Translations under genes and position numbers: made by a program
Notes under the pieces: model-generated
What the model saw: the letters and a program-made list of their open reading frames with translations, nothing else
Database searches by the model: none
What the model was told of the DNA's origin: nothing
Shown: positions 29,707 through 57,830 of the stretch, one piece after another
Position numbering within the stretch: the stretch's first letter is position 1
Layout of the letters: every line of letters begins with the position of its first letter
Source: Eledone cirrhosa
Taxonomy: Eukaryota
Assembly (NCBI GenBank): GCA_964016885.1
Contig: OZ024742.1
Coordinates: 346,890,001 to 346,954,000, forward strand
Length of the DNA stretch: 64,000 bases
Direction: 5' to 3'

Positions 29707-29708
<2 letters not shown>

Positions 29709-29939
29709 TTTTCTTTATTAACCTACATAAAGTAGACATTAAGGACAGCACAGGACAGTACAGGACGGTACAAATGGGCATTTCTGCGTGTAAAAAAAAC
29801 AGAGGATGAAATAAAATAACAAAGAAAAATTCCCCAATAGGGGGGAGACTTCCGAGGGACATTTGTGGAGAAAGCCCATTAAAAGACCACAGTGGCCCTG
29901 ACCACCAGGGCAAGTGCCCTCTCCCAGTTTTCCACCTTT

Positions 29940-32900: not shown

Positions 32901-33361
32901 CCCACACAATCCCAGCGTACATCTAAGATCCCGTTCCAGTCGCCCACTAACACTAAAGAGCGGGACGTTCCAAGAAAGGTCTCCAGACGCCGGAAGAAAT
33001 CAGGCCGCCCTGCTCCTGTCGGGGCATAGACGGCCACTAACCTGAAAGCTTGCCCGTCTCCGCTGGTCACGTCCAACACCACCAACTTACCTTCTGGGTC
33101 CAGGAAGATGGCCCGTATGGCGAGATCCAAACCTCTCCGAAAAAGCACAGCAACTCCTCCCCCCGATCCCGGACGGCTGGGAGATGCGTACACATCGTAG
33201 CCGCCGAAGATCGGTGCGAAATCCTGTGCTTCGGAGATTCTGGTCTCGCTGATGGCCACTACATCTATGTTTAGTGACCTGAGGTCGTTGAGCAGGTGGC
33301 CCTGCTTCCATGACGACCCCAAGCCACGCGCATTTATGCTGCCTATTCTGAGTGAGGTCAT
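29940..33361 (-). pseudogene. Tx1-like ORF2: APE endonuclease plus reverse transcriptase, with a frameshift near 31355 and premature stops
   Basis: SINARG, ISET, GDWN, YLDR, TDH; KSPGLDG, FRPITLLN, DQSKAFDRV, RQGCPLS, AYADD; C-terminal ETVLHALVQC. Confidence 0.92.
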
Positions 33362-33395
33362 GTTGAAAAGGAGTGGAAAAGATGGGAAAGACCAC

Positions 33396-35390
33396 TTACC
33401 TTACTTCTCGTAGGGGAAGGACGGTTTTTCCATCCTTTTCACTGCTTGTGGCCTCCTCAGGAAGGATGTCCTTATAAATCCTCCTGGAGAGTGCTTGTCG
33501 GAAGTCTCCGATGTCTTTGGGGAATTTTTATTTTAGTGTCATGTACGTTTTCTGTGTGATGCGAGTGATTTGTATGTGTGGAGGTGGTGTGAATTTTGGG
33601 GTTGTTGTGTAGTCTTTTTCTGTGATGCTGGTGTTGTGTTGGATGTAGTGTAATAATTGCTTGTTGTTCAAATTTAATGCTGTGTAGTGTGTATCGTTTT
33701 GGTTGTTTTGTTTTGATTGCGTTTTTATTGTGGGTTTGTTTCTGTTTCGCATTTTGGTGACTTTTGTGGTGTAGGTGATGGTGGTGTTGGAGTTAATGAT
33801 GGTGATGGTGTTGGTGTTTGGGTTGATGGGGTTGGTGATGCTGGTGTGGATGGTGGCATATCTGTCCTAACTTTTTTGTTTCTTAGTTTATTTGTTTCCC
33901 TCTGTATTTTGTTTTTGGAGGGGGAAGGAAAAGAATTTTTTCTTTTTTGGTTTCTTTTTTTTTTTCCGGATATCGTTTCCCACTCCTCGTCGTCACAATC
34001 TGTCTCCAGTTGTGATAGGCCGGGGAGTGGAAAATCCTCCACAGGCGTTAGTTTTGGTTGTGGCGTGGTGGATGGTGTAGGCGCTGGTGCTAGTTCTGAA
34101 GCGATGGGTGGTGGTGGTGTTGGTTTTGCTGGTGGTGGTGGTGGTGGTGGTGTTGGTTTTGCTACTGTTGCTGGGGTTGTTGCTGTTATAGTTGCTTCTG
34201 TTGTTGCTGCTACAGTTGTTGCTGCCATCTCTGCTACTGGTGGTGTTGATGGTTGTGTCACAGGGGTGGGTAGGAGAGGTGGCCTCAACCTTTTAGCCTG
34301 AGGGCAGAAAGCCCTTAGGTGGGTTCCTTCACCACAAACGACACACCTAGGTCTTCTGCCCTCGACAATTACCGTGAGGTGGCTGCCGTCAGTGAGGTCT
34401 ATTACCTCGGGGATCTCCTCAATGCTTTTTTGGTCCGCTTGGATCAGGAGCTCCATCTCAGATCCGGACCAGTTCTCCTGCTTTTCTTTTGCTATTGCTA
34501 TTATTTTGGTGTTGGCTTCGATGTCGGCGAGGACGGCCGCTATTAGCCAGGGAATTTCGATGGCCGGTGGAACGTGGGTCACCCTGATCTTTACGAGTCT
34601 CTGGCCACAATAGCTTGGGACGAGTGTTAAGTCGTCACTTCTTAATGGGGCCATGGAGTGTTCTCTAGCCTCCTCTGGTGTTTCAAAGAACACGTCCATG
34701 GTTCCATACTTTTGCCCACGTCTGATGTGGGTTTTTCTTGCCCACACATGTCCCAAAGCTTTTGGGATTTGGGACTCGGATACCCGTTCCACTCGGCGCG
34801 ATTTTACATTTATTGTTCGATACGACACGGTGCATAGGCGCCGATGCTCCATTTTTTTAGGTGGGGGTGAGGCTGACCCTGTACCCATCTTTCTTTACCA
34901 TTTGTTTGGCATTTTCTAAATCCTCCTGAGTTACCGTAAATGCTTCGAACTGTTTTGCTACTCTGGCGAAACTGAGGGGGGTTTTTATAATGTCATTGTT
35001 GTTGTTGTTGCTATCGTTATTTGTGTTAATATTAATTTTAGTTTCAGTTGTGGTGGTGGTGACGTCAGTCGTCTTTGGTGGGGAAGAGTCCATTTTGCTT
35101 GATTTCATTTCGACATCACGAGTTAATTTATTTTTTTCTTCTTTTGTTTCTGTTGTCGCGGTGGTGGTGGGGGTGGTGGTTGTCGCGGTGGTGGTGGAGG
35201 CTTTAACACCTGCAGTCATTGGTAATGGCGGGAAATGAATGTCTGCCTGAGACAAATTTAAAATATTTCTACTGCTTATATTTTTTTTTGTGTTGGCAAA
35301 CGTAGTAACATTTACAATGGTGGTGTCGGTGTGAGGTGTTAATTTGTGAGGAAGGCTTTCAGCTGCTTGGTGCAGAGGTGAATTAGCCAT
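33396..35390 (-). pseudogene. Tx1-like ORF1 (gag-like, zinc knuckle), frameshifted
   Basis: ORF pieces 34857-35390, 33725-34888 (CVVCGEGTHLRAFC) and 33528-33752. It ends DGKTVLPLREVR* at 33396. Confidence 0.8.
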
Positions 35391-35585
35391 TTTTTTTCAA
35401 AGAAATTTTTTGATAATAATAAAAGTTTAAATTTTGGGCACAAGGCCCCAATCTTTTTGGGTGTCCTTTTCGGAAAACAATGTATGTTTAACAATAAAAA
35501 TTTTCCATAAATGGCAATTTTTAACAAACGGAAATAACAAACCTTTGCGGAGCTCACGATGATACGATTTACTACGTAGGTCGCC

Positions 35586-35633
<48 letters not shown>
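35586..35633. repeat. (TAA)n microsatellite
   Basis: Read directly. Confidence 0.95.
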
Positions 35634-35915
35634 CCAGGATTTGGAATTGCCATGAAGTCAAAGTGATGCCGATTGTCATGGGCGCACTGGGGACTATCTC
35701 CAAAAGTTTCCAGGGATGGCTAAAGAAAATCGGCCCCTTCACGCTTTTTGGAACGCTTCAAAAGGCATGCTTGCTGGGAACAGCAAGAACCCTCCGATAC
35801 GTCCTGAATATTTGAGGCTGCAGGTAGTGGCTTGATATTCATTCCAACGGACTTTCCAGTTAACCAACATCAATGACTGAGATTCAAGGAATAACAACAA
35901 TAATAATAATAATAA
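35634..35915 (+). mobile_element. Severely 5'-truncated Dong/R4 family B copy with (TAA)n tail
   Basis: Similar to 29426-29660. It retains KACLLGTARTLRYVLNI*, which is partly deleted in the long copy. Confidence 0.85.
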
Positions 35916-36849
35916 GGGAAGAAGACGCACGAGGTGGTAGAACGTCACGAAATTACTCCCGTAAGTTTTTTGATTTTTAACATATTTAAATCAATTGTGA
36001 AAGAACAATTCTTAGCACAAATGTTGCATAAAGGCACCGAATGAGGTCCCATAAAGTTTCGGATCCATATTATATTGTTGTATCGCTCAAATATTCAATT
36101 TTGTATTATATATTTTGTATTCAAAAAAAGAAAATGGTTATAAATGGAACAAAACACCCTCTGTCTACACTATATAGAACAGCAGCAATTTCAATTTCAC
36201 CAACACCAGAAACTTGATACACTACCTATCCCATCACACTAAATATAACAGCTAGATAACGGCAATTTCACCAGCATCATAATAATAATTACTATTATTA
36301 TTGTCTCAAATTTTAAAAAATGTTTAATTCAAATTTTACGGGAATATGTCAACACAAAATATAATAAAAATATATATTAAACATACGAACACAAACTCAT
36401 AGATACTATATCAGTAACCACAACACCACCGCTGCCACCACCCCACCACATCTATCATCGCCGCCACCACTCATTCAATGCTACTGACACTATTCCCCTG
36501 TTAACTTGAGAGAGAAAAGGGGAGGTGGCGGTAGCACTAGACAAGAGAGAGGCTAGCAAAAGATATAAATAGATTGACTTGGTGACCTTGCCACCCACCG
36601 GACAAACGTCTACATCAACAATTATGGGACTGCTGGCTCACCCCTTCCTCACCAACAATATAAAAAGCCCCGGCACCACCACCGACATAGCCAACAACAA
36701 TAACAGCCAACTACAACAAAAAGTATATTATATTATTGTAATGCACTGGGTGATTGCTGGCCTTGTGCCTGGAGTGGAGACAATTATTAATAATTTCATT
36801 CTTAAGCCACGCAATGCTCACATTAAGGAACCACTCATGATAATAACAA

Positions 36850-39800
36850 TTTTAAAAAAAAAAACAACAAAAAGAAAACCCCGTGACCAAGAAATACCGG
36901 GATGGCGGCCGGCGGGGAATAGCCATGTCTCTAGGGGAGAACAACCCCTCTAGTCTTGGTTGACACTCGTTCTAGAAGTGGTAACACGAAATGATTACCC
37001 CTTGGCGGATAAGGATAAAACGCGACAAAATAAAGTAAATGTCTAATGATAAAATCTCATACCGGATCGGCCGTCACCCGGGTAAAAAAGGGCCGCGTCC
37101 CCCAGAGAGGAACCAGACTGGGGTCGAAAAATCAGCTAATGGTTCAAACCTTCCCATCACTTCGGAGCTGGAGACCTCCCATAACCGGAATACTCCTACT
37201 GTTGGCCCTCCATGCTCACCACCAAGAAATCCAAAGAAAAAGAGAGAAAAATGGTCAAGGGAAGATAATAAAGAAGTCCTTGAGGCTTTCTACACTGCCA
37301 TGTACTACCCATCAAATACATCGAATACAGAACAAACATATATCAACTGGAAAAAGAAACATCCGAAAACAGAGGCTTATTTACAGTAACAAACTAGCCA
37401 ATATACGAAGAAATATTGTAAGAAAAAAGTTACTAACTGATATAGAAATTGATCAGATCAAGCTAGTAGCACAAAGTCAGCGAAGGGAAAATGAAGCATG
37501 TGTCAGTGAAAACGAGGTAAACTGTAACACTTCGAATCCCAGGGTTGGGGCGGAATCACTGGCAACAGAACAAATTAAAGAAAGGAGCGAAAAAGTGGAG
37601 GGAGTGCATGCTCAGGATGAAACTCCAAATGAAAATAATGAGATCGTAAATGATAAAGAAATGAATGAGAATGAACTTGCCAACTTGAAGGATGAAATTA
37701 TGATCGAATGGATGAAAATGAAAGAATCTGACATGGGGCAACGAGACACCCTCCCTAAGATCCAGAACTCCAAACAGAACCAAAAGATAATACACAAGAC
37801 TAACATAATTCTCAAAAACATTATCATCACAAACAAACTAAACATTACTGACTTAAATCATCTCTATTATGCATCGGCTAAAGTCACCACTCACTTATGT
37901 GGAGTGAAGATGAAAAAACAAAGGAATTCCCACAAGAAATCTACTTGGCAAGATAACATCAATCGCCAAATAAACCTTCTCCGATCTGACATAAAAATGT
38001 TAACAAACTATAAAGTAGGTGAACATGTTAAACAAACTAAACTTAGAAAATTGAAAAAAAAGTACAGTATAAGATCAACATGTGACATAGACATGCTGAT
38101 AGAAACAATCAAGCAAAAAGTGACGGCCAAAGCTGCTCGTATAAGGCGCTTTCAAAAACGATCTAGATTCTATAAGGACAATAATATGTTCAAAAACAAC
38201 CAAAGAAACTTCTACAGAAAAATTGGTAAGTCAACAATAACTGCTAAATCAATACCACCCAAGGAGGAAGTGCAAGAATTCTGGGAAAAGATCTGGGCCG
38301 AAGAAAAAGTTCATAACATACGTGCCCCATGGATAGACAGACAAATGAAAGAAACAGCTCACCTTGAAGAACAAACATGGGAAAATATAACAGTTGAACA
38401 GCTGCGCTTGGCTCTAAGAAAAACCAGCAAATGGAAATCCCCAGGAAAAGACAAAATACAAAACTTTTGGATAAATGCCTTCACAGAGTCTCATGAGCTG
38501 TTAGCCCAACTTTACAATGAAATAGTTAAGGAGCCAGAAAAGATACCATCATGGCTAGTTAACGGCATTACATTCCTGCTACCGAAGAATGATGAGACAA
38601 ACAATCCCAAAAATTACAGACCGATAACCTGCTTGACCACAATGTATAAAATGTTAACATCAGTCCTAACTGAATACACATATGACCACCTGATAACAAA
38701 TGACCTATTTCCCATTGAGCAGAAAGGGTGTAAACGAGGCTCATATGGCTGTAAGGATCAGCTTCTGGTTAACAAAATGATACTGGAAGATTGTCATAAT
38801 AGACACAAAAATCTATCGATTGCTTGGATAGATTATAAAAAAGCATTCGATAGTTTGCCACACAGTTGGATTGAAAAATGTTTAGAGATTTTCAAAATAT
38901 CCCCCGTTGTCAGGAGGTTTTTGTCATTCAGTATGAGGACATGGAGAACGACACTCCTTTTGAATAGTGAAACAAAATCACTGGAAGCTGGAGAAGTTAA
39001 CATTAATTGTGGAATTTTTCAGGGTGACTCTTTATCACCGCTTTTATTCTGCATCGCACTTATACCATTAAGTAAAATGCTCAATGAAACAAAACATGGA
39101 TATTGAGTCTATGACAAAACCATTAATCACCTGTTCTACATGGATGACCTGAAACTATTTGCAAAAAATGATGAACAATTGCAAGGGCTATTATCCACTG
39201 TGAAGCAGTTCAGTGATGACATTAAAATGGAGTTTGGACTGGATAAATGCGCCAAAGCAACGTTCACCAGAGGAAAGCTGCTGAAGAGTTCAGACATTAA
39301 TCTTGATCGGGGGAACGTGATAAGAGAGCTTGATCAAGAAAAAACTTACAAATATCTAGGTGTTTGTGAAGGAGACGGAATCAAGCACTCGACAATGAGG
39401 GAAAGGATAAGGAAGGAATGTTACCGCAGAGTAAGAGCAATCTTAAGAACGGAATTGAATGCAAGGAATAGGATCGATGCCATAAACACGCTTGCCATAC
39501 CAGTAGTAACCTACAGTTACAATGTCATCAACTGGTCAAGCACAGAGATCCGTAGGCTCGATACAAAAATCCGAAAATTCTTAACCATGCACAGAATGCA
39601 TCACCCTAAGGCAGACATAGATAGAATATATCTCCCTAGGAAAGAAGGAGGACGTGGGTTAATCCAGTTAGACATTGCGTTGAAAACTGCAACAATTGGA
39701 TTATCCACATATCTAAGGGAATCACATGATTGGATGATCAAACTCGTTTTGAAACACGAAAGCACCAAAAGATCATATTCCATTACAAAAGATGCACAAA

Positions 39801-40850
39801 GATACAGTAATGGACTACAAATTTCAGAAGTCCCATTTACTGCTGAAATGGAAAACACAGAAAAAGCAAAGCAGGTAAAAGTAACTGCAAAGAAAGAACT
39901 GCTACAGAAACTGGCTAAGAAATGGCAAGAAAAGCCTCTGTATGGAAACTACCCAGAGCGAGCTAACAATCCTGATGTTGACAAAACTTTAACCCATCAG
40001 TGGTTGGCATCCTCTGGACTGAAATCGGAGACTGAAGGACTGATTATATCGGCACAAGATCAGTGTCTGCCAACAAAAAATTACCAAGCCAACATAATAA
40101 AAAATGGGTGCAGCCCATTATGCCGTGTATGCAAAAAACAACCAGAGACCATTGACCATATAATTTCAATGTGCAGTCCTATAGCTCCAACCGAATACCT
40201 AAACAGGCATGACAGAGCTGCACAATACATACATTGGATAATGTGTAAGCATTTTGACCTGCCCCATCAAAAGAATTGGTGGGAGCATCAACCACCTCCC
40301 ATACTTGAAAAAGATCACATCTCAATCTTGTGGAACTTTAGCATCCAAACAGACCGAAAAATAGATGCAAATAGACCTGATATAATATTGAAGGACTTTC
40401 AAAGGAGGGTATGCCTGCTAATTGATATGTCTGTTCCAATAGACAAGAATGTATCTATAAAAACATTTGAAAAATTGAGCAAGTATAAGGACCTGGAGAT
40501 AGAAATTGGAAAAATGTGGAAATTGAGAACTAAAACAATACCAGTGGTTGTAGGCGCTCTGGGAATGATACCTAAGGGGTCTAACGACTACTTATCGCAA
40601 ATCCCAGGAAACCCGCGTATAGGAGAAATACAAAAGATAGTACTAATGGGAACTGCCCATATACTAAGGAAGATCCTGTCAATATAAGTACATCACAAGT
40701 CTAAACACTAAGGATGCATGTGTGAATATGTGTGTTCTTTCTTGAACATGGCGGACCTTGTTGTCTCTTGAGGTCACTGGTTGTGACTTGGTGATAACTC
40801 GTATGAACATAAAGCAAGATAAATGCAAATAATAATAATAATAATAATAA
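36850..40850 (+). mobile_element. Full-length Dong/R4-like element (family A, copy 2) with (TAA)n tail
   Basis: The single ORF is broken into 37039-37389, 37046-39106 and 39140-40687. It is nearly identical to 23530-26035 over the shared part. Confidence 0.92.
37039..40687 (+). pseudogene. RT-RLE polyprotein with a frameshift near 37380 and a nonsense TGA at 39104-39106
   Basis: GGATATTGAGTC here versus GGATATAGAGTC in copy 1. All RT, CCHC and PD-D motifs are present. Confidence 0.9.
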
Positions 40851-43800
40851 TGATTTCTTTATTAACCACAAGGGTTTACATAAAGTAGACAGGGGGGAGA
40901 CTTCCGAGGGACATTTGTGGAGAAAGCCCAGTAAAAGGCCACAGTGACCCTGACCACCAGGGCAAGTGCCCTCTCCCAGTTTTCCACCTTTAATTTACAG
41001 ATATATACTCAGAGTAAGCCCATTCACTCGGGCCATTCTTGCTTCTCTCACCCATCTTTCAACAAAATGCTGGGAAGAGAGCACTTCCCTCTCTACTCTG
41101 ATTTTCCTTTTCAAATGAAATTTGAAAAAGTCAATCAGGGGATCACCGAAGAGGTAAGTGCTCGTCTTCAGCCCTTTCAAACGTGTCCACTATACTATCT
41201 CTTTCGCCATGGCCACCAGACAGATAAAAACTGCCTGCCCTTCCCGGCTAAAGGAGGAGGGCGGAGCAATCCTCACGATGGACTCAGATGATAGCCGGAT
41301 CCGTCCTACACGCGACAGCAGGTGTTCGACATAAACACACAAGTCAGCAATTTTCGGACACTGGACGAGTGCGTGCAGGACGGTTTCGTCGCCCTGCGCG
41401 CATCTCGGACATGCCCGGCTGACGGCACCTCCATGCCTGTAGAGTTTATCCCGAACTGGCAAGGCTCCTCGGTAGCACTGCCAGGCCAGAGATTTCTGGA
41501 AGTTGTCCATAGGCCCTGGCCCGAAAGTTCTTCCGAAGAGATTGGCTAGTTTATTTTCGTCGACGCCTAGAGTTTCCCCAAGTACGGCGTCGCTCTTCCC
41601 CTCCACTAATCCTCTATAGAACGCCGAGGTGGAGTTTTCACCGATCACATTGCCAGATTGGTCGAGGGCTGTGAGTGCCTGAAGACATTCCAGTCTCCAG
41701 GCGCTCCCTCTCGGTCTTCGCTTGACCCAGGACTGCAACTCCGTCAAGGAAACGAGCTGGGGAAATACGTGTCAAGCAAGCGGCGACCACACCTGATCAC
41801 CGTCGAGGAAGAGGTGGAGATGTCGTAGCCTGAGCGCGTGCCTGCGCATCATCAGCCACGGCATGCCCAGCCCTCCACGTAGCGGGTGTTGACAACAGAT
41901 GGACCGCCTGACCATCAGAGCGCGTCTCTTCCACAAAAAGCGAAAGAGCAAACGCTCCAGCGCAGTCAGGCGAGGCTTAGGACAAGGTACGACGGTCAGG
42001 CGGTAGCAGATGACAGACGCGATGTACGCGTTAGCCACCTCCACTCGACCTTTCAGGGATAGCTTCCTCTCCGCCCATTTCTGAGTGAGAGAAGCCACCC
42101 TGCTCGTCACCTCGTCCCAGTTTTTGTCCGTCTGGAGGTCCGGACCGAACCAGAACCCCAGCAATTTAACCGGTCCGTCCGTCCAGCGTCCGAGGACGCT
42201 GTTGGACGGCATGGACCTGCCTCTCCAGGTGCCGAGCTGTAGGCCCACTGACTTTTCCTGGTTGATCATTGCTCCTGTCACCGCTTCGTATTCTCTTAGT
42301 GTAGTGGCGATCGCCTCGATGTGTTTGGCGTTCGACACCACTACGGTGACATCGTCCGCATATGCTGACACGGATCTTCCGCATCCTAGTTCGCGCGGGA
42401 CGCCCCTCAACGTCTCCAGTTTGTGCAGTAATGGCTCGAGAGTCAATACGTACAAGAGGGACGAGAGGGGACATCCTTGGCGGACCGACCGCATGATGTT
42501 GAACGGTTCCGAAAGGTGACCGTTCACTCTCACCACAGAGCAGATGTCGCTGTGCATGGCAGCGATCCAGCCTTTAAAGACGGGCCCAAAGCCAGCCGCC
42601 CTCAGGACTGCCGCTAGGTAACGATGGTCGACCCTATCGAAAGCTTTCGACTGATCTAAATTGATCAAGGGCCCACCCGTGCCAGGTTCCCTAGCTACCC
42701 TCTCTACGATGTATCGCATGAGGTGGATGTTGTCGTAGATGGATCTGTCGGGAATGGCGCATGTCTGCGCCTCTCCCACCAGACCACCAACGACAAGCGC
42801 CAACCTCTTTGCTAGCACCTTGGTCAAAATCTTGAACTCTGTGTTTAGCAGAGTTATGGGCCGGAAATTATCTATGTTATCCCCCTTGTACGGATCCTTT
42901 CTCAGCAGTGCCACCGCTCCTCGGCTCACAGAACTGGGAATTCTCCCGTTCTGTTGCCAGTTGCAGTAGACGTCCGCCAAGAGGCCTCCGAACAAGTCTG
43001 GCATCTGTACGTAAAGTTCATAGGGCAGACCATTCAAACCAGGCGATTTACCCCTTGTGCAGCCAGTCATTGCCTCCCTTACTTCAGCGGCTGTTATCGG
43101 CTTTTCGCAACACTCCGCCTCAGTGACCGAGAGCCGCGGCAGTCCGTCGAGGTAGACACTAAAGTCCATCCCTCGACCCGGCCACCGCTGCCCCCGAACA
43201 CCTGAGCGAAGTGTCGCTGAAAAGCTTCACACATTTGCCCGGGATCGAGTAGCATGCGCCCGTCGTGGTCCACCAAAGACCGGATCGTGGCTTTGTTGCC
43301 ACAACGCACCTCCGCCACTCGGGCCCATTGAACGGCTTTCGTCCCCTCGTGTCTGAGAGTACGCACCCTAGCCCTGACAACGCAGCCTTCGTGCTTTGCA
43401 TTGAAGAATTGGTCAAGGGCCAATTTCGCCGCAAGCACGTCGGTCGCAATGCCTTTGCTAAGCGCCTCGTGTAATTTTCTAACTAGTTCTCCCTCTGCTC
43501 TATTTTTCTCTATTGCTAAAGCCTTACTAAACCTAATGGATTCTATTCTAATCGCTCTTTTCAGAGCAAACCACCACTTGTTGTTGACGATGGCCCCCGT
43601 CAACGCCGGCTTAACTAGTTCGCTAATCCGGTCTCTGTAGGCCTTGCGCGCTGGTAAGGACGTGTTTAGCTTCCAGTAGCCGGGTCCTCGTCTATGAAGC
43701 CTATCTAAATTAAGCACACAGATCACGAATTTGTGGTCCGTGTAGCTGACTATCTTGAAATTGTGGACAGCCTATCTATTTCCCTACAAAATACTCTATC

Positions 43801-46280
43801 TAGATATGATCTGGATGACCCTATGCGATTTGTCCAAGTCCACATTGGCACATTCGGGAAATCCAATCGGTACCTGTCAGACAGTTCAAAACGCCTGAGC
43901 AGGTTGGTGAGGCTCTTGCACCCTCCACCCCTATCTGCTAATCCCACACAGTCCCAGCGTGCATCTAAGATCCCGTTCCAGTCGCCCACTAACACTAAAG
44001 AGCGGGACGTTCTAAGAAAGGTCTCCAGACGCCGGAAGAAATCAGGCCGCCCTGCTCCTGTCGGGGCATAGACGGCCACTAGCCTGAAAGCTTGCCCGTC
44101 TCCGCTGGTAACGTCCAGCACCACCAACTTACCCTCTGGGTCCAGGAAGATGGCCCGTATGGCGAGATCCAAACCTCTCCGAAAAAGCACAGCAACTCCT
44201 CCCCCCCCCCGATCCAGGACGGTTGGGAGATGCGTACACATCGTAGCCGCCGAAGATCGGTGCGAAGGCCCGTGCTTTGGAGATTCTGGTCTCGCTGATG
44301 GCCACTACATCTATGTTTAGTGACCTGAGGTCGTTGAGCAGGTGACCCTGCTTCCATGACGACCCCAAGCCACGCGCATTTATGCTGCCTATTCTGAGTG
44401 AGGTCATGTTTAAAATAGAGTGGAAAAGATGGGAAAGACCACTTACCGTACTTTTTGTAGAGGAAGGATGATTTTTCCATCCCTTTTCACTTGATCGTCT
44501 GGTGAAGGGACCGTTGAATCGTCCCTTTGGCTGGTCGACGGCTCTTCTATGAGTATGTCCGAATATACTCTCCGGTTGAGAGTCCCTCCTAGGTCTCTGA
44601 AATCACCAACTGCGTTGGGGAATTTCGTTTTAATGTTTGTGTATTGTTTCTGTGCTATTTTTAGAAGTCTTATGTTAGTTGGCGTTTTGATTGGTGCTGG
44701 TATTATGTAGTCGTGCTGTGAAATGTCTGTGTGTTCAATTATGTAAGTCATTAGTTTCTTGTTGTGTGTATTTATTGCCGTGCATTTGTTTTTCTGGGTG
44801 TGGGGTATGGTTCTGCTATCTTCTTGTCGTTGTTGCTGGGTGTGTGTGTTTTGTTGTTGTGTTTGCGATGTTGGTGCTTGTGTTGTTGAAGGTGTTGTTG
44901 TTGTTGGCGGTGGGGTTGTCGCCGGTGGTGATGGTGGCGCTCGTGTGGGTGGTGATGGTGTTGGTGGTGTTGCTGCTGTGAATCTCTTTGCAGTAGCCTT
45001 TACCCTTTTTTCATTTCTTTCCTCCCTTTTCGAAGGCGACGATGCACTGCTTCTGCGTTTGTGCCTTTTTACGACCTTTTGCCATCCCTCTCCCACTTCA
45101 CACTCCATGTCTGATTCTGTGAGGTCGGGGAGGGGTACCAGCTCCACTCTTTCACTTGTTGTTGTTGGTGATGTTTGCACTGGAGTCTCTGTTGCAGCTG
45201 CATTTGGTATTACTGTTGTTGTTGTTAATACTTCCACTGCTGCTGCTGTTTTTGATTTCCGTGACGTGGGTATGGGTGCCACGGACCTATCGTTCCTGGT
45301 TGCCGCTTGTCCTGTTGCTGATAGCCGTGGAGCCGGTTTCGGAAGGAGGGGGCTTTTCTCCTTTCTCAGGGTCTTCTCGTTGCAGGGGGTCCTGAGGTGA
45401 GTCTTCGATCCACAGCGAAAACATTTCGGGCGTTTGCCCTCAACACTTATGGGCAGTTGAGTGCCGTTATCGAAGTCTATCACATCCGGGATAGCTTTGA
45501 TGCACTCCTGGTTGGTTTGGATTAACATCTCAATGGAGGTGCCGACCCAATCTTTGCTGCTGTTGTTGTTGTTGTTGTTGTCGTCAGAGCTGCTGTTACT
45601 TTTGTTGTTGCTGCAGGTACTACGACTACTGCCGCCGCCGCTGTTGCTGTGGTTGTTGTTGTTGTTGCTGCTGTTGCTGTTGTTGTTGCTGCTAATGCTG
45701 TTGTTGTTGATGCTGCTGCTGATGCTGTTGCAGCTGCTACTGTTGTTTTCCTTGTCACTGTTGCTGCTGTTGCTGTTATTACGGCTGCTACTGCTATTAT
45801 TCCTGACGTCAGACGAATGAAATGGGTTTTCGTATTTCCCGCACACCTTTTTCGTCGTTGTCGTTGTCGTCGTGGAGAAATCTTGCACGCTTTGCACGTG
45901 ATTTTTCTTTTCTGGCGTCGCTTGCGAAAGAGAAGGGAGGGAGAGAGACACATTTAGAGAAGGGAGGGAGAGAGACAATCTTCTCTCTGCTGTAGTGACG
46001 ATTGAGGAAGAAGAAGAAGACGGAATGAGTGGGAGTGACCTATGAAAATTCTTTTTCGTGGCCATGTTTTTTTTTTTGTTTAAAATAAATATTGGGCACA
46101 AAACCCCAATAAGCGGTTATTTAACTCCGAAGGGCCAAATAACGGGCAGAAAGATCCCTCTCACGAGGAGGAGGGTGTTTTTGTCTACAATTTGGTTAAA
46201 GTTTTAAACAATTTACAATTGTTATAGCGGTAAAATTTACAATACCTTACAGAGCCGAGCCTCCCTCAACCATAGCATTC
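40851..46280 (-). mobile_element. Tx1-like element, family A' (ORF2 close to 29940-33361, ORF1 divergent), flanked by (TAA)n
   Basis: ORF2 pieces 44407 to about 40990; ORF1 44443-46101 with CFRCGSKTHLRTPC. Confidence 0.92.
44443..46066 (-). CDS. Tx1-like ORF1, open but apparently internally deleted; Asn/Ser- and Pro/Thr-rich with one zinc knuckle
   Basis: ORF track 44443-46101, with the likely ATG at MATKK. The domain preceding W.G..E.L.Q in the other ORF1s is missing. Confidence 0.6.

Positions 46281-46345
<65 letters not shown>
46281..46345. repeat. (TAA)n microsatellite
   Basis: Read directly. Confidence 0.95.
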
Positions 46346-46347
<2 letters not shown>

Positions 46348-46538
46348 TATGATTGAAAATTATACCCGGACCACCGGAAATGTTGGTAATATCCAGTATG
46401 GGGTTTCTGCAACTCCTAAATCAAGTACTGTCTGCTTAAGCAAATAATACTAAGCTTTTGGTATGATGATCGAACATATATATATATAATTATATAAAGT
46501 ATAACGAAAGTGCTCAAGCGCTGAAATGCTATAAAGAC

Positions 46539-46735
46539 AGTTTATAAAGTAGGGTGAAGACTCTTAAAAGACAGAAACAGAGTTTGCCAACGACAGCTAT
46601 GAGGAATTGAAACCCCATATCTTCCAGATATCTAGCCTTATCTGGAAAATATGGGTTTCAATACGTTTTCCTCATAACCGTCGTTGGCAAACTCTTTTTC
46701 TGTCTTTTAAGGGTCTTCACCCTATTTTATAAACT
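46539..46735. repeat. Imperfect fold-back inverted repeat, about 197 bp
   Basis: AGTTTATAAAGTAGGGTGAAGAC...GTCTTCACCCTATTTTATAAACT, with pairing continuing to the centre near 46638. Confidence 0.85.
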
Positions 46736-48545
46736 ACACCATCACCACATAACATATCCCTCCCACACGCCCCTGATGACGATTCATCACCAGACGAGGA
46801 TACTTCTCCATCCCCAAGTGAAGATGAAGGAGAGCCTCGTAAATCAAAAAACAAAAAAAGAGACACCACAAAGCCACAAAAACAACAATCACCAACACGA
46901 ACACACAACCACCAACACAAACAACAAACATCCCCCCCCCCCTACCAGCAAAATAAACACCAACACCACCCCAAACACAAATGCCCACCAAAAATAAAAC
47001 TACAAATGAACAACAAACCAAAACAACACAACAAAACAAAACAAACAATATACATACATTAACACAAACAACAAAAACCTAATGGAGGTCATCTCCCAAG
47101 ATCCCAAAGTAGAAACTGAGGGGAAAACTTTTGTCAAGGCAGACTCTCAACCACACCTAAAACTGATAAGGGTTTCGATATAAACCTATCAGAAATTAAA
47201 AGAACAATTTTCACAGGACGTTGGCAACCCCTGTCAAAAGCCCATTAATCGCGTCCTATTAAAATGTTTCCCTACCCCACTCAACGCCCCCACCAGCACC
47301 CAAATGGAGATTGAACAACCCGATCTCCATGAAACGAAAAGGTAAGTGCATCTTTTCGTCCTTTTTCGCCAACTCTTCTCCACCAACATGACTAATTTAC
47401 GAGTTGGACGTGTGAATGTGCGTGGCCTAGGGATGCCCTGGAAACAGGACCAACTTTTAAACGACCTTAGGTCACACAGTATGGATGTGATAGCCATCAC
47501 CGAGTCCAGGATCCACAACAGGCAGCAACTAATCCCCATCTTCAATAACTTTGAGATCTACGCATCTCTCAGTCAGCCAGGAGGTGGAGGGGGAGTGGCT
47601 GTCATGTTTCGGAAAAAACCTGGACTTCGAAATACAGCAAGTACACTTGGTGGTCGGAGGGTAGACTGGTGGCCCTAGACGTGAACAGTATTGGAGGTGG
47701 AGCTTTCAGACTGGTGGCCAATCGCGGCCAGACATCTTTAAACGTCTAGAGTATTTTCTTGGAACGTCTCGCTCCTTGATTTTAGTGGGGGACTTGGATG
47801 GTATCCTAGACGCACGATGGGACTATGTAGGATCATATCCCAGTAGAGGGGGGAGCAACAGCCTCAAAATTTTCGATCAATTCCAACTGGCCTATAGGTA
47901 TCGACTAGATTTCCCGACTGCACCACAATGGACGTGGACAAACCACAGCGAGACATCTAGATCGTATTAAGACAGGTTCTTTATTAGAGAGAGAGACAAG
48001 ATGTTAAGCTGTCCACAAATGCACATAGTTGCCTATTCAGACCACAAACTAGTCATCTGCATAGTCAACCGTGATAGATTACATAGACAAGGACCCGGGT
48101 ACTGGAAGCTGAACATGTCACTACCGAGACGTAAAGCCTACAGTGAACGGATAAGTAGATTAGTTAAGCAACAGTTGACGGGAGCCATCGTCAACAACAG
48201 ATGGTGGTACTCTCTCAAGAGAGCAATTAGAGTAGAGTCGATAGACTTCAGCAGAGAATTAGCCTTAGAGGAAAACAAAACAGAAACACAACTAGTAGCC
48301 AAGGTAGAGGAAGCGCTTAGGACTGGCAACGCAGCTAGAGTGCTAGCAACGAGAACGGCACTGGACCAGTTCTTCGACGCGAAACACGAAGGCTGCGTGG
48401 TCAAAAGTAAATCACGTGCTCTAGGAAACGAGGGAGCAAAAGCTGTTAGCTGGGCCCAAGTGACAGAGGCGAAAAGTTGCAACAAGTCCACGATTTGGTC
48501 TTTGAAAGACCAAAACGGACGCGTGCTACTTGACCCCAACCAGCT
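46736..48545 (+). mobile_element. Internal fragment of a Tx1-like element (family C): ORF1 end plus degraded APE region
   Basis: ORF1 ends MEIEQPDLHETKR* at 47345. ORF2 starts MTNLRVGRVNVRGLG at 47388 and includes YSDHK and GPGYWKLN. Confidence 0.88.
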
Positions 48546-51265
48546 ATGTTGGTGAAGAAGAGTTGGAGAAAAAGGACGAAAAGGTGCACTTACCTTTTCG
48601 TTTCCTGGAGATCGGGTTGTTCAATCTCCATTTGGGTGCTGGAGGGGGTGTTGGGTGGGTTGGGGAAACCTTTTAACAGGACGTTGATGGGTTTAACAGG
48701 ACGTTGGTGGGTTTAATAGGACGTTGATGGGTTTGTAGTGACCTACATTCCGCGGACTCACATACATTCTCTGTGCGTGATTTGGCTCAGCTCAGCCAAT
48801 CAGCGCCAGTAGAAGAGGATGTATCCCTACGCGTTCTGAGGGAGAAATAGCCCGCAAAGATTTGAGGACGCCACCACTTCCAGGCTAGATGACTTCCAGG
48901 CTTGACCATGCTAAGTAAACACCGCTTGTTCTTTTGCTCCGCCAGCGCAAACAATATGTAACGACAAAACATTCCTACGGAGCTGGCTAAACGTCTTCAG
49001 CCAGTTGACCGTATTTTCTCTTGTAATCTTAATTGAATTATTTCATTTCTCTCGGCATGCCAACTTAACTCACTTCTTAACTTCTGTTAATAAATAATGT
49101 AAAACCAAGCAAAAGTCGTTTTCGATATTCCTATCATATCTTTCTACCAAACCTGGTTCCTCGTGGCAACATTACAACTTCTGAAATATACTTCTCCGCT
49201 AAATTGGAATTTACATTTTCAACCAAATTGGTGACAACAACATTTCTTTCACCAAGGTTTCTGGTAGGGGTTGCCCACGTCTTGCGAAAATTTATTTTTC
49301 AGGTCACTATAGGTCTCCATAGAAACCCTTACAAGTTTAAGGTGTGGAGACGATTCCGCTTTGACGAAAGTTTTGCCCTCCGTCTCCACCTTGAGGTTTT
49401 GGGAGATGACCTCAATCAAACTCTTGTTGTTTGTGTTGATGTATGCGTATTGTTGTTTGTGTTTTTGTTGTGTTGTTTTAGTTTGTTGTTCGTCCGGGAG
49501 TTTTCTTTTTATGGTGGGTGCTTGTGTTTGGGGTTGGGTTGGTGTTGGTTTTGCTGGCACGGAAATGTTTGACTGTGGTGTTGTTTGTGTTGTTGTTTGT
49601 GTCTGTAGTTGTGCGTTGGTGTTGGTGATTGAAGTTTTGGGGGTTTTGTGGTGTCTCTTTTCTTGTTTTTTAGATTTCCGAGGCTCTCCTTCTTCTTCAC
49701 TTAAAGAAGGGGAAGCAGCATCATCTGTCGATGAATAATCATCGTCAGGAGTGTGGGGTAGGGGTATGTTGTATGGTGGTGGTGTTTCGGTGTGTGTGTT
49801 TGCGGTAGTATTTGATGGAGTGGGATGATGTGGGGCTGTGTTCTTCAGGGGTGTTGTGTGTGTATTTTCTGTTGTTGTTGAATGAGTGGCTGTTTGTTTT
49901 GGTGTGTTTGCTCGTTTCGTCTGTTGTTGTACTTGTGGTGGTTGTTGTTTTGGTGTTGGTGTTGGTAATAGTGTTTTTTTAATGATGTTGTTGTGGTGTG
50001 TTTGTGAAGGACAGGAGGCTTTTAGATGCGCTGTGCTACCACAGCGAAAGCAATGAAGTTTTCGACCCTCCACCGTAATGTCTATTTTGTTGTTGTCGTC
50101 GATGACGACTTTTTCAGGTATTTTGGAGATTCTCTCCGGCCTCATTTGCATCAGAATCTCCAAATCAGTACCCGCCCACCTTTGTCTAATAGACTTTCGT
50201 ATCGAAAGAATCATATCAGTCCCTGGCTCTACGAAGCCAGCCTAGATCCACCAGATGTTAATGTGTGGTGGTATATTTTATATTTTTATTTTTTGTGTCC
50301 TTTTTCCCATGTACGTAGGGAAAAAGGTGGATGCTTTTGACACCATTGGTGTCACAGAATGTTTTTGGGTGAGTGCCTCGCTTTTAAACAGTACGGAAAC
50401 ACTTCCGTGCTGTTTTCCTCTTTGGGGAAAGTCAATATTTGTTAGAGTCTCCTTGAAGGTGGCTTCTATATCTCCTTGACTAACAAATATCGGATTTCTC
50501 GTTGTGTTGGAGACAATCCTAAAGATCACTGTCCTACGAACTGTATCTTCTTTTATTTCGAGGGGTGAGTTAATTCTAATCCCACATTTGTCTTCGAAAG
50601 TTACAAATTGTCTCCCTTGCTGGAGCATATCTCTTGCATTGGAGATGTCAAGATTTATAAAATCTTGTTTTTTGTTCACTGTTTCAGCGAAAGACATTTT
50701 TTTGTGTGGTGTTGCTGTTGTTGTTGTTATCGTTGTTAGCCTCGGTGTTGGAAATCTCAATTTCTTGACGAGGTGAAACTTTATGTGCAGATGTATCTAT
50801 GGAGTTGTTGATGTTGTCTTTTTCATATGTATGTATGTTAATAGGTTTAATTCCTGTGTTTTCCTGTGTGTTATTGTTACTTTTCTCCGCTTCTACGGTA
50901 GAAATTTTAAAATCTTCAAGTGGCAATATTTTTTTCTCTTTCTTGACTGTCGTATCTATGGCAACGTCCATAGTAGCAGAAGCAGATATAACGTTAATAT
51001 CTGCCTCTCTACCTCTCTTCTCTCTGTCGACTGTCTCTAGCGTTCTTTCCGAGCTTTTCATGTTTTATAGTTGGCAAAATTTGATATTTTAAAACAACTT
51101 TTAAATTAAATTTTCGCCCCGAACGGGGCGAAAAATGGAATTACAACCCAGCTGCCAATTCAGCTTGGGGGTTAATCTACAAAATGATAAGTTTTTTCAA
51201 ACAATTAGTTCGGTTTTTTGCATAGAAATTAACCAAAAAGCTTACCGGCGATGTTTCACGATTCA
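48546..51265 (-). mobile_element. 5' half of a Tx1-like element (family C): 5'UTR plus frameshifted ORF1, interrupted by an insertion
   Basis: ORF pieces 50684-51061, 50278-50760 and 49249-50214 (CFRCGSTAHLKASC). Homologous in reverse to 46736-47390. Confidence 0.85.
48734..49255 (+). mobile_element. About 520-bp insertion with GGTT(T) target-site duplication; probable solo LTR
   Basis: Absent from the homologous position of the + copy (about 47235-47245). It starts TGTAGTG, has CCAAT and AATAAA, and is flanked by GGTT at 48730-33 and 49256-59. Confidence 0.55.
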
Positions 51266-51294
51266 GGCAGATAAAGAGATAGATAGATAGATAA

Positions 51295-54200
51295 ATTTCT
51301 TTATTAGCCACAAGGGCACAAAAGAAGGCGACAAATAGAAATGGGAAATTTACATACAGGTATATGAAAATAAAACTATTAATAAAATAACAAATAACAA
51401 TTGATATCCCCAATAGGGGAGAGGCGTTACACAAGGGTTGTACACACCCCGAAAAATGTACAACCCTCATCTCCAGGAGCACCAAGAGTGAGTACTCCAA
51501 TCCTCCTTTTCCTCAACCTACAGGCTTATATAGAGAGAAGGCCCAACCACTCGGGCCATCTTTGCCACATTCACCCACCTTTTATAAAATTTGCTGGGGT
51601 ACAGCACCTTTCTCTCCATCCTGATTCTTCTTACAAAATGATATTTGAAAAAACGAATCAGTTGCTCGCCGGAGAGAAAGGTGTCTGACCTTAGCCCTTT
51701 TAACCTCGTCAACCATATAACCTCTTTCACCATAGCCATAACACATAGGAAAACCGCCTCTCCCTCGTTTTTGAAGGAGGGTGGCAGTTTGATCATGACA
51801 ATGGACTCGGTGGTCAACTGGATTGGTCCCACCCGCGACAATAGTCGTTCTACATAGCCCCACAGGTCAGTAACGCCCGGGCGGTGTACAAATGCGGGCG
51901 CGACGGTTTCCTCGTCGCGCACGCATCTCGGACAGATCTTTTTCGAAGGGTCCCTACCCGGGCGCCCGTGTCTGTAGAGCTTGTCTCGAACTGGTAGAGC
52001 TCCTCGGTAGCACTGCCAGGCCAGAGACTTTTGGAAGTTGTCCATTGGTCCCGGGCGGAAGGTCCTACCGATCAGACTGATCAGTTCGTCCTCCTCTACG
52101 CCGAGAGTTTCTCCGAGTGTGTTGTCGCACTTGCTGCGGACCAACCCTCTATAGAATGTCGAAGTGGGTCTCCACTGATCGCCGGGTCCGTTTGCCAGAG
52201 GACTGTGAGCGCCTGAGCACATTCGTTGTGCCAGTCGCCCATTTTCCTCGGTCTTTGCTTGACCCAGGACTGCAGCTCGGTCAGCGAGACGAGTCGTGGG
52301 AAGGTTCTCCACACCGGTTGTCTAGTGAGGAATACGTGGAGGTGCCGCAGCCTGAGCGCGTGTTTGCGCATCGTCAGCCACGGCATACCCAGCCCTCCGT
52401 TTGAAGGGTGTTGGCAGCACATGGATCTTCTCACCAAAGGAGCCCGTTTCTTCCAAAGGAATTGGAAGAGCGCGCGCTCCATTTTGGTGAGCGTTTTGGC
52501 TGGACAAGGCACGACGGTCAAGCGGTAGTAGATGACGGACGCTATAAAAGTATTCGCCACCTCCGCTCGACCTTTCAAGGATAGTTTGCACTCGGCCCAC
52601 TTCTGGGTGAGAGCAAACACCTTGGCCGTCACCTCGTTCGAGTTCTTCTCCACCTGGAGGTCCGGACCAAACCAGACTCCGAGCAGCTTTACCCGTCCTT
52701 CCGTCCAGCGTCCGACAACGCCATCGGAAGGCATCGGTTTGGCTCCCCACGTTCCGTGTTGCAAACCGACAAATTTGTCCCGGTTCAGCTTTGCTCCTGT
52801 GAACCTTTCGTATTCCTCCAGTAAGGTGCCGTTCTCCCCGATTTGCGAGGTGCTCGACACCATTACTGTCACGTCGTCGGCGTAGGCCAACGCCGCTTTT
52901 CGCAGTCCCGGTTCCAAAGGGATGCCCTGCAATAGCTCCAACTTCCGCAGTAGTGGCTCGAGAATCAGTACGTACAGAAGGGAGGAGAGATGGATCGCGT
53001 GGTATGGAACGGCTCCGAGAGGTAGCCGTTCACCTTGACCCTTGAGCAGATGTTGCTGCTGTGCATTGCAGCAATCCAGCCCCTGAACACGGGTCCGAAG
53101 CCTGCCGCCTCGAGCACTGCATCCAGATAACGATGGTCAACCCTATCGAAAGCCTTAGACTGATCCAAGTTGTTCAGGGCCCCACCGAAGCCGGGTTTAC
53201 ACCCTACCCTCTCTATGATGTATCGCATGAGGTGCAGGTTGTCGTGTATGGACCTGGTCGGGATTGCGCATGTCTGCGCTTCTTCCACCAGGTTTTCAAC
53301 GACAAGCGCCAGCCTCTTTGCCAATACCTTGGCCAAAATCTGTAACTCTGTGTTGAGCAGAGTTATGGGCCGGAAGTTTCCTATGTCATCCCCCTTGTTC
53401 TCCTCCTTCCTGACTAACGTTATTACGCCCTTGGTCACAGAATTGGAAATTCTCCCGTTCTGCTGCCAGTTGCAGTAGACCGCTTCCAGGAGACCGGAGA
53501 ATAAGTCCGGCATTGCTACGTAAAATTTGTAGGGTAGACCGTCGAGACCTGGAGATTTGCGTTTGCCGCATTGGCTCAGCGCGTCCCCTATCTCAGCGGC
53601 CGAAATCGGCCTTTCGCAGAACTTCGCCTCGCTGTCCGAGAGTCGCGGTAGGCCGTCGAGGTATGGACCGAAATCCATATCCCCTCCCGGTCCCGACGCG
53701 CCGCCCTGCCCGAACAGTTGAGCAAAGTGCCGCTGAAAGGCCGCACACATTTGCTTCGGCTCATGTATCACGCGTCCGTCTTGGTCCTTCAAAGACCGAA
53801 TCGTGGACTTGTTGCCACTTTTCGCCTCCGTTACTCAGGCCCAGCTAACAGCTTTGGCTCCCTCGTTTCCCAGAGCACGTATTTTGCTTCTGACAACGCA
53901 GCCTTCATGCTTCGCGTCGGAGAACTGGTCCAAAGCCTTCTCGTCGCTAGCACGCTGGCTACGTTGCCACTCCTAAGTGCCTCTTCTACTTTATCTACCA
54001 GTTCCTTTTCGGTCTTATTTATATCTAACACTAATTCTTTACTAAAACCTATCGAGTCTAATCTAACTGCCCTCTTGACCATCTGTTGTTGACACTGGCC
54101 CCCGTCAAGTGCTGCTTAACTAAAGTGCTAATCCGTCTACTGTAGACTTTGCATGTCGGTAACGACAAGTTCAGCTTCCAGTAGCCGGGTCCCTGTCTAT

Positions 54201-56554
54201 GGGTTTTGTCAAGGTTGACTAAGCAGGTCACTAATTTGTGATCTGAATAGGCAACCATGAACATTTGTGGACAGATTAACATGTCCCTATCCTTCTTTCT
54301 AACTAGAACCCTATCTAGGTACGATCTAGATGTTCCGCTACGATTAGTCCACGTCCACAGTGGCACAGTCAGAAAATCTAGTCGATATATATCAGCCAGG
54401 TCAAATCGGCCGATTAACTGTTTGAGGCTGTTTCACCCCCTCTATCGGGACATGCTCCCACATAGTCCCAACGTGCATCTATGATTCCATTCCGGTCCCC
54501 CACTAATAGCAGGGAGCGGGACGTTCCCAGAAAAGTCTCTAGACGTTTGAAGAAGTCTGGCCGCAGTGTCCTGGATGGGGAATATGCGGCCACCAGCCTG
54601 AAGGCTCTACCTTCACTACCGTCAACGTCTAGGACCACCAGTCGACCCTCCGGGTCCAGATGTACCGTCTGTGTTACGAGGTCCAGGTGTTTCCGCAGCA
54701 AAACGGCAACCCACCCCCACCTCCCGGCTGACAGAGAGATGCATAGATCTCAAAGTCGTCGAAGATGGGGGCCAGTTGTCGCTCGCTGTGGATCCTGGAC
54801 TCGCAAATGGCTACTACATCCATACTGTGCGACCTGAGGTCGTTTAAGAGTTTGCCCTGTTTCCAGGGCATCCCCAGGCCGCGTACATTCACACATCCAA
54901 CTCTTATATTGGCCATGTTGGTGCTGAAAAGTTAAAAGAAGAGGAAAAGAAATCACTCACCTCTTCGTCTCCTGGGGACCAAGCTGCACAATTTCCATGT
55001 GGGTGTTGGAGGGGTTGTTTGGTGGGGTGGTGGTCTCTGGAGGGGTGACGACGGAGGTGTTTGTGGGGGAGGGTTGTCAGGTGGGGTGGGGTGTCTGAGG
55101 TGGGGGTGGGGAAACATTTCAAAAAGGATGCGGTTATAGGAAATGTTTCTTTTAACTGTTTATGTGTGTCCATGGAGATCCTAATCATTTTAAGATTAGG
55201 AAACTCCGCAGAATGTGTAAAAGTTTTCCCTTCGGTCTCCACCGAAGGGTTTTTATATATGGCGTCTGTTAAAGTTTTATTGTTAGTATTTATGTAGGTG
55301 TAACATTTTTGTTGTGTTGTGTTGCTTTTTTTCTGTGGTTCTTGTGTGTGTTTACGTTTTGTAGTAGGTGTATTGTTTTCAGGAGGGGGTGTTTTTGTTT
55401 GTGCTGTTTGCGTCGCTTGTATTGGTGTTGGTGTGTTTGTTGCATTTTTGTTTGTGTTATGTCTTTTATTTTTATTTTTTTTTACTGATCGGAAAGGCTC
55501 TCCCTCATCGTCACTGGGTGACGATGATGAGGCCTCATCCGTGTTGTTGGGGAGGGGTACATTTTGGGGAGCTGTTATGTGTGTGTGGGTGTTTCTGGAG
55601 TTGTTTTTTGGTGAGAAGGGGTTGGGTGGGACTGTGTTTGCAGTTTGGTTTGTTTTTGTGTGTTGCTGTTGTGGTGGTGGTGGTGGTGGTGGTGGCGGTT
55701 GTGTTGTTGTGTTGGGTGTCGGCAGTAGTGCCTTTTTTTAATGCAGTTAATTGAGGACAGGAAGCCCTCAGGTGACCACTGCTTAAACAGTGGTAACATG
55801 AAGGCCGTCTACCCTCAACAGAAATGTTTATGTAGGAATTCCCATCCAGAGGCATACGTTGTGGTATACTAGCTATCCGTTCTGGTCTCATTTGGACCAG
55901 AACTTCTAAGCTTGTACCGTTGAATATGCCCCTGGGGGACTTTCCTACCGAAATTACTGTATCTTCATCAACATTGATGAAACTAGCTAATATCCACCAG
56001 ATGTTTACATTTGGTGTGATATTTGTTACTTTTATTTGTTGGGTCCTTTTTCCCATGTATGTGGGGGAAAAGGTGTAGAGGGGGGGGGGGGACACAATTG
56101 GCGACACAGAATATTTCTGTGCCGTCAATTGGTCTTTCATTATTATTGATAAACTCCCGAAGAGTTTTCTCTTCTGTATGTAGGTAATGTCCTTCATGGA
56201 GTTTCTTAGAACCAGCTCAATTTCGTTTTGAGTTAATTGAGCTGGTTTTCTGGTGGTATTTGAGATTGTCCTAAAAACTATGGTTTTCGGGACAGTGTCT
56301 CTACGCAATTCTTGGGGAGAAGTGATGCTAAAAGCGCCATTCTCACCAAAAGTTATATATTACTTGGCATCTCTTAGCAATTCTCCGTCATTAGAGATGT
56401 CAATCTGTGTATATAGTTCTGTCTTTTGGACAGTTTGTGCAAATGAAACCTTTTTTCCTTGTTTGTGGAGTTGTTCTTGTTGGTGTTGTTGTCATTATTG
56501 TTGGTGTTGTTGGTGTTGCTGTCATCATTGTTGCTGTTGTTGTCATTGCTGTCG

Positions 56555-57746: not shown

Positions 57747-57830
<84 letters not shown>

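Follow-up and report, generated by a model that had tools for sequence, protein, structure and literature searches.

The RNA of LINEs (long interspersed nuclear elements) has to stay unspliced, and splice sites in such elements are usually regarded as harmful. Why, then, should each of five L1/Tx1-group copies in one stretch of Eledone cirrhosa DNA end its first open reading frame (ORF1) inside a near-perfect 5' splice site? The stretch, hereafter the window, is the 64,000 nucleotides at positions 346,890,001 to 346,954,000 of contig OZ024742.1 (assembly GCA_964016885.1), and the 3.0-Gb assembly that holds it was the genome searched. An original prediction made from the window alone held that the five ORF1 stops lie within a conserved functional donor, each followed by a C/T-rich spacer of 34 to 42 nt and the ATG of ORF2. 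All five motifs are where it had placed them, the first coordinate given being the -1 G, and its spacer lengths hold, with stop-to-ATG distances of 34, 35, 42, 42, and 40 nt. The five copies cannot be counted as independent cases, however, since they represent only three families: A (33400 and 44447, which agree in the spacer and in the final ~42 nt of ORF1), B (47341 and 48594), and C (54961). Our analysis establishes that the donor motif is real and extends across the clade, whose elements are themselves of a known kind, and led to two further findings, a set of hybrid families joined exactly at the donor and a predicted long-range stem that covers it. For the purpose of the donor, we weigh candidate roles suggested by these sequence patterns.

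The elements and their clade

ORF2 in this clade is a protein of 1139–1146 aa with endonuclease and reverse transcriptase domains (APE-RT; Pfam Exo_endo_phos and RVT_1 matched), whose best solved relative is human L1 ORF2p (E=2e-52) and whose closest named relative is an Argonauta ORF2 (73% identity). ORF1 is separate from ORF2 and has in many copies a CCHC zinc knuckle, CX2CX4HX4C, which Pfam zf-CCHC matches weakly (E=0.02–0.09). Families A, J, I, M, and P end in (ATT)n, most copies of B, C, D, H, and K lie in (TATC)n-like runs, and F has another repeat. The Tx1 label rests on these three characters—APE-RT ORF2, CCHC ORF1, and target preference; searches for relatives of ORF2 returned no named Tx1 reference. 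The accessible parts of PMC4494074 describe Tx1 target preference and the microsatellite-targeting types Kibi and Koshi, which our clade resembles in its two ORFs, ORF1 knuckle, endonuclease and reverse transcriptase in ORF2, and insertion into microsatellites, here (ATT)n or (TATC)n-like. A repeat annotation of Octopus vulgaris lists 13 recently active L1-Tx1 families, and splicing is not mentioned in the passages of it that are accessible (PMC13282606). Our literature search, whose coverage is thin for subscription papers, Repbase reports, and supplements, found no published description of the donor-plus-stem arrangement in Tx1 elements, whether as a conserved donor, an ORF2-closing stem, or a splice-born family.

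A donor conserved across frames and stop codons

The first important finding is that the motif is conserved far beyond the window, as the original prediction had expected. An unbiased sample was drawn with a pattern for the ORF2 start that ignores the donor, which has 13,377 matches in the genome and 3 in the control, and the first 100 consecutive matches were examined. Two of these are starts of another LINE clade without the motif. Among the 98 clade members, 90 have G/GTRRGT (the slash marks the splice position) at most 60 nt upstream of the ORF2 start, and in the remaining eight the motif is point-mutated, deleted, or replaced by GTAATT. The hexamer occurs as GTAAGT, GTGAGT, and GTAGGT, by which all three stop codons are represented. 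The arginine-stop ending at donor positions +2 to +4, also part of the original prediction, holds for all five window copies—directly for 44447, which has a 557-codon open frame, and through less broken family copies for the other four—but fails as a general rule. In subfamilies I, J, and C2, ORF1 (open for 408, 333, and 643–644 codons, respectively) reads the motif in a different frame and does not end until donor +6 to +8, with the motif unchanged, which argues that it is the donor that is conserved and not the arginine-stop.

Across 15 representatives, which were anchored on the motif, -1G, +1G, +2T, and +6T are present in 15/15 and +5G in 14/15, with variable flanking columns, against an identity at ORF2 fourfold sites of only 0.52–0.56 between the deepest families. 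Strong donor words are scarce inside ORF2, with 4 seen versus 13 expected from shuffles and 11 in antisense. The distance from donor to ATG ranges from 25 to 47 nt and takes all three phases, which excludes a conserved frameshift or readthrough. Outside the clade, one of eight distant L1/Tx1-group elements (26–31% ORF2 identity) has a donor on its ORF1 stop and seven do not. The one that does (L308, 28% ORF2 identity) carries there a G followed by GTGAGTAA, at L308:1920-1945. Since one in eight is compatible with chance, the motif is, within the range of these tests, specific to the clade.

Hybrid families joined at the donor

The second finding is the existence of three multicopy hybrids in which one family's ORF1 ends exactly at its donor and is followed by the sequence that lies after a CAG in the partner. 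One was already among the five copies of the original prediction, which overlooked it: the 44.4-kb element of the window, which is likely a splice-born hybrid judging by its junction. This hybrid family, A2, consists of the ORF1 of family P followed by family A1 sequence, from the final 43 nt of its ORF1 through the spacer and ORF2 to the 3' untranslated region (UTR); its ORF1 is unlike that of A1, yet from 43 nt before the donor onward it is 96.6% identical to A1, where a CAG precedes the corresponding segment. The A2 left flank, when any base but T was required after it, had 81 matches in the genome, and the 30 examined comprise 24 copies of family P and 6 point mutants of A2. The donor of P, intact in most P matches, sits at exactly the A2 junction, and upstream of it A2 and P are ~91–93% identical in the better-covered copies. 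The second hybrid, D', follows family C to its donor and continues in family D just past a CAG located 23 nt before the D donor; it accounts for 13 of 30 examined rows of a 39-match retrocopy search. The third is a 75-nt repeat in which the C donor is joined to a C-type CAG, and in four D' loci the piece runs from that CAG to the position of the C donor.

The parents share only AG at each junction, and a C precedes that AG in all three cases. CAG makes up 2/13, 2/4, and 3/7 of the AGs in the three partner regions, and from these local counts the joint chance is ~0.03. In the unbiased sample, A2 makes up 10/98 and D' 1/98, and both of the multicopy nonhomologous ORF1 junctions found there (A2 and D') end on the donor base. 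In two A2 copies (L201 and L202) neither ORF is interrupted, ORF1 having 713–714 codons and ORF2 1139 aa. All three hybrids inherit both arms of the stem described below from a single parent. The presence of two microsatellite targets within one clade would give rise to head-to-tail arrays: an A-type element lies downstream in the same orientation in 6 of 20 P copies, and close neighbors within the sample are on the same strand in 16/16. With parents arranged head to tail on one strand, a read-through precursor RNA is plausible. Taken with the conservation across frames and stops, these junctions are good fossil evidence that the donor works, if our reading of them as products of splicing is right, and on this point the original prediction is supported in its claim of a functional 5' splice site. 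As a whole, its interpretation is partly supported, the three roles it offered (an ORF1-only or extended transcript, protection from premature polyadenylation, control of ORF2 reinitiation) being candidates.

Other exchanges exist in the clade: L187 has the 5' part of family I and the 3' end of family A, and there are further recombinants inside ORF2. The A2 left flank is also found, with loose ends at window position 33439, in contigs of two sequencing runs, X4 and X6, of which X6 carries a different organism code.

A predicted stem between the spacer and the 3' UTR

The C/T-rich spacer of the original prediction is present but can be read differently, since it is complementary to a purine tract that follows the ORF2 stop, and it is probably one arm of a stem, judging by the modeled pairing. 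For 19 representatives, the duplex of the spacer with the first 43 nt after the ORF2 stop has a mean of -26.0 kcal/mol for cognate pairs and -22.0 kcal/mol for permuted ones, and cognate duplexes beat composition shuffles (13/300 or better) in 15/19. Extended into the flanks, the predicted duplex reaches -32 to -56 kcal/mol; it stretches from the final codons of ORF1 to the start of ORF2, with which the ORF2 stop is paired. In a fixed register around start and stop, across the 15 representatives, 141 of 165 cells are paired, versus 133.8 when permuted and 40–66 when slid. Double changes such as G-C to A-T support the stem in families A and H, and in A, B, C1, F, and J the pairing partner of the donor changes along with it. 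When the entire 3.6-kb region is folded, the long-range helix is part of the minimum-energy structure in 7/7 tested. The complementarity is thus matched by lineage, with ORF2 start and stop in register, and pairing of this kind can explain the conservation of AAC-ATG at the start and TAG-GT at the stop.

What the donor may do

We tentatively favor, with a confidence just short of even, the reading that the motif at the end of ORF1 is a conserved 5' splice site on which U1 docks in the nascent RNA and which the stem later masks. As long as transcription is still within ORF2, the 3' arm has not yet been made and the U1 small nuclear ribonucleoprotein would bind the donor, where it could keep the ~6-kb RNA, which has no introns, from forming a 3' end too soon, the part that the donor plays in the Arabidopsis element EVD. 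Synthesis of the 3' UTR would then let the stem close on the donor and on the start and stop of ORF2, blocking splicing and leaving a full-length template, and a ribosome that had finished ORF1 would need to unwind the stem before translation of ORF2 could begin. On rare occasions, a read-through RNA of a head-to-tail array may escape, its donor being spliced to the CAG near the end of the next element's ORF1, and the product, a complete hybrid, could retrotranspose. The whole would amount to a timed RNA switch, which we hold at the same cautious level: U1 keeps the donor until the 3' UTR arrives, the stem clamps ORF2 and chooses between full-length and ORF2-less RNA, and the spliceosome grafts ORF1s into new autonomous families. 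This scenario builds on the observed motif conservation, complementarity with covariation, and exact hybrid junctions, and would add U1 binding ahead of the 3' arm, masking by the stem, and rare splicing into the next element.

In favor of this timed switch are the conservation independent of frame and stop, the purging of strong donor words from ORF2, and the EVD precedent. Polyadenylation [poly(A)] hexamers within 500 nt upstream of the donor, present in 15/19 representatives versus 10 expected, fit protection mildly. Several points weigh against it. First, U1 binding, the stem, and any splice are all predictions drawn from DNA sequence. Second, two of the three hybrids (D' and the 75-nt repeat) came from a donor-targeted search, and searches with the D, F, and A1/A2 donors gave no further ones. 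An unbiased junction survey, which yielded 16 candidates that are mostly indels or homologous divergence and one real internal deletion without GT-AG ends, found one of the three hybrids and missed A2 and D', so that the background of other junctions is incomplete; it was the second such survey, the first having been discarded as too noisy. Third, the A1 acceptor is weak (5.8 by a crude score). Fourth, ORF2 is depleted of poly(A) signals (6 versus 17), which together with the mildness of the upstream excess leaves a need for protection hypothetical. Finally, the donor hexamer is fully paired in 8/19 duplexes and partly in the rest, pairing of the donor alone with the 3' UTR is not family-specific (p=0.07), and permutation p-values are too small because the families are related.

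ORF2 might instead be a regulated intron, removed by splicing from the donor to TAG/GT at the ORF2 stop (in family A, to a CAG in the 3' UTR). This would leave an mRNA for ORF1 alone, in the manner of copia, in a proportion set by the stem. We regard this as possible but doubtful. By our own acceptor score, a crude pyrimidine count rather than a trained model, the AG of the ORF2 stop is the most consistent site, being one of the 10 best among ~260 AGs in 13/19 representatives; TAG/GT is retained in most families, and the 3' UTR CAG of family A is strong (ranks 1–2). However, family A, the most abundant, ends ORF2 with TAA, and its CAG, which we rejected as a clade-wide acceptor, is not kept beyond A and M, being absent from J, I, and the B–K group. 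Furthermore, pairing already accounts for the conservation of TAG-GT, and ORF1 could be translated from full-length RNA anyway, as is established for L1.

The products that such splicing should leave were sought in the genome. No retrocopy that lacks ORF2 or fuses ORF1 to ORF2 was found by our pattern searches, which miss some acceptor contexts, in a pool of eligible copies estimated from the sample at ~6,300 of B/C/D/F/K type and ~2,300–2,800 of A type. The first pattern gave 9 matches, all small or microhomology deletions, and the second gave 39, of which the 30 examined comprise the 13 D' rows, 3 with a duplication, and 14 deletions. A pattern for the B/C/D/F/K types had one, unrelated, match, and three further patterns gave 29 point mutants, one insertion mutant, and zero matches, respectively; a pooled degenerate pattern was abandoned as pure noise (696 matches versus 659 in the control). 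Few retrocopies would be expected in any case from an ORF2-less RNA that makes no ORF2p in cis, and their complete absence among eligible copies fits an RNA that is mostly unspliced. No run recorded as RNA is listed for the first family A element, a blank that carries no information about its expression. In contigs of four sequencing runs, of unrecorded kind, matched to that element, no joint at the donor is seen among the 15 listed of 1120; three runs matched to the junction alone show zero joints and, among the 10 loose ends listed of 22, none at the donor, and contigs of X4 and X6 bridge it unspliced. Because contigs drop rare forms, the lack of a donor joint is weak evidence. A first metagenome scan found nothing. 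The acceptor ranking thus favors removal of ORF2, and the missing ORF2-less copies and the lack of an AG at the family A stop oppose it, which is why we place it behind the timed switch.

We consider it unlikely that only the stem and the stop context are under selection, coupling ORF2 translation to ORF1 termination, with the likeness to a donor being incidental and the hybrids side effects. Such coupling would suit a stem that spans the stops of both ORFs and the AUG of ORF2, a G that mostly follows both stops, and hybrids that all keep an ORF1 end near an ORF2 start. It sits poorly with subfamilies I, J, and C2, which stop elsewhere, before A, C, or T, and still keep GTRAGT including its wobble positions; with the D group and I, in which the middle bases of the donor stay the same even though they are unpaired; and with the free variation of other stem positions. 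Less likely again, and in our judgment quite improbable, is that the hybrids arose by reverse transcriptase template switching at the 2-nt AG microhomology and that the motif is an inherited relic. Other donor-adjacent deletions (L094 and L108) do have microhomology without AG, all families share one ancestor, and most of the distant elements lack the motif, but the donor-base ends of the A2 and D' junctions speak against template switching, and the invariance of the motif at so low a fourfold-site identity speaks against a relic. Removal of a mini-intron of 37–53 nt that fuses ORF1 and ORF2 in frame is largely refuted despite an in-phase AG at ORF2 codon 5 in most families, since family B has CGA at that codon (and one B subfamily also lacks AG at codon 8), the introns of F and D would be only 39–42 nt, no fused copies were found although a fused RNA should retrotranspose in cis, and the contigs contain no donor joint.

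Comparison with known systems

Long-distance pairings that gate translation, and donors that act without splicing, are known from viruses: the Min Jou interaction of MS2 closes a start codon, and the HIV-1 major donor, through U1, blocks the 5' poly(A) site. The clade may resemble these in principle, in that a start codon would be covered by a remote stretch of the RNA and a donor would act while remaining unspliced, but the elements are unrelated and the likeness is an analogy only. Among retrotransposons, the closest parallels in the accessible parts of PMC5580714 are EVD (Ty1/Copia) and Drosophila copia. In EVD, a U1 site conserved toward the end of the structural gene serves both to make a gag-only RNA and to prevent the unspliced transcript from terminating early; copia removes pol by splicing. 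The clade shares with them a conserved U1-type site near the end of a structural gene, but as described there those elements have long terminal repeats (LTR) and a single gag-pol ORF from which gag requires splicing. Ours are two-ORF non-LTR elements in which ORF1 has its own stop and a long-range stem is predicted over the site. Human L1 SpIREs are spliced retrocopies that are called dead ends in the accessible parts of PMC5860796. Like them, the clade has genomic copies with junctions that match a donor and an AG acceptor, here of three types and putatively spliced; unlike SpIREs, which arise within one element, the hybrids have parents from different families, and A2 is abundant, with both ORFs open in some copies.

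Features of the window

The coordinates of the elements are collected in Table 1.

Table 1. Elements, donor motifs, and predicted stem arms in the window, with positions counted from its first letter
Feature	Positions	Strand	Remarks
Element 1, family A1 L1/Tx1-group LINE	29708..35585	-	Inserted within (AAT)n; both ORFs broken in the window copy
Element 1, 5' splice-site motif AG/GTAAGT	33394..33401	-	Covers the ORF1 stop
Element 1, predicted 5' stem arm	33356..33407	-	ORF1 end, donor, pyrimidine spacer, ORF2 ATG (33361)
Element 1, predicted 3' stem arm	29903..29951	-	ORF2 stop (29945-29943), purine tract, donor-complementary stretch; duplex -43.8 kcal/mol, outer helix retained in the predicted 3.6-kb global fold
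Family A1 ORF1 CAG	33442..33444	-	42 nt upstream of the donor; A2 joins A1 here (putative splice acceptor)
Element 2, hybrid family A2	40852..46280	-	In the (TAA)n tail of another LINE
Element 2, hybrid junction	44489..44490	-	44490 is the final P exon base, exactly at the P donor; A1 sequence follows
Element 2, donor motif CG/GTAAGT	44441..44448	-	Covers the ORF1 stop; ORF2 ATG at 44407
Element 2, predicted 3' stem arm	40955..41002	-	ORF2 stop 40997-40995; duplex -40.5 kcal/mol
Family B partial element, donor motif AG/GTAAGT	47340..47347	+	ORF2 ATG 46 nt past donor +1
Second family B copy, donor motif AG/GTAAGT	48588..48595	-	Inversion junction cuts the ORF2 start (48547)
Family C, donor motif AG/GTGAGT	54955..54962	-	ORF2 ATG at 54916
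Family C, predicted 3' stem arm	51480..51526	-	ORF2 stop TAG (51520-51518), which doubles as candidate acceptor TAG/GT; purine tract, GTGAGT-complementary stretch; duplex -41.2 kcal/mol

The A-type elements lie in (AAT)n runs, some of them the tails of other LINEs (29657-29707, 35586-35633, 40828-40851, and 46281-46349), and the C/D-type elements in (GATA)n-like runs (51285-51295 and 57747-57830). At 40852-40900, element 2 is without the part of the 3' UTR that carries the pyrimidine tract and CAG of other A copies. The two family B copies are joined by an inversion junction at 48520-48560, with ~10 nt of near-identity across the ORF2 start. At 29750-29943, X4 contig depth is far higher on the last 200 nt of element 1 than on ORF2, which is not the case in run X1, possibly because of a short partner element with a common 3' end. 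Elsewhere in the window are a 27-bp satellite (3-12634; ~468 copies, 92% matches) and a fragment of the helix-turn-helix of a Mariner/Mos1-type transposase (61513-62016, minus strand).

Significance

This clade, with more than 13,000 ORF2 starts, has kept a near-perfect donor, purged others, and would hide the one it keeps in a stem predicted to pair the start of ORF2 with its stop. If our reading is true, this would be a new control of LINE RNA fate and ORF2 dosage. Moreover, L1/Tx1 lineages exchange ORF1 and 5' ends, and splicing from one neighbor to the next would provide a concrete route for the exchange of ORF1, of which both parents and the precursor arrays are still in the genome.

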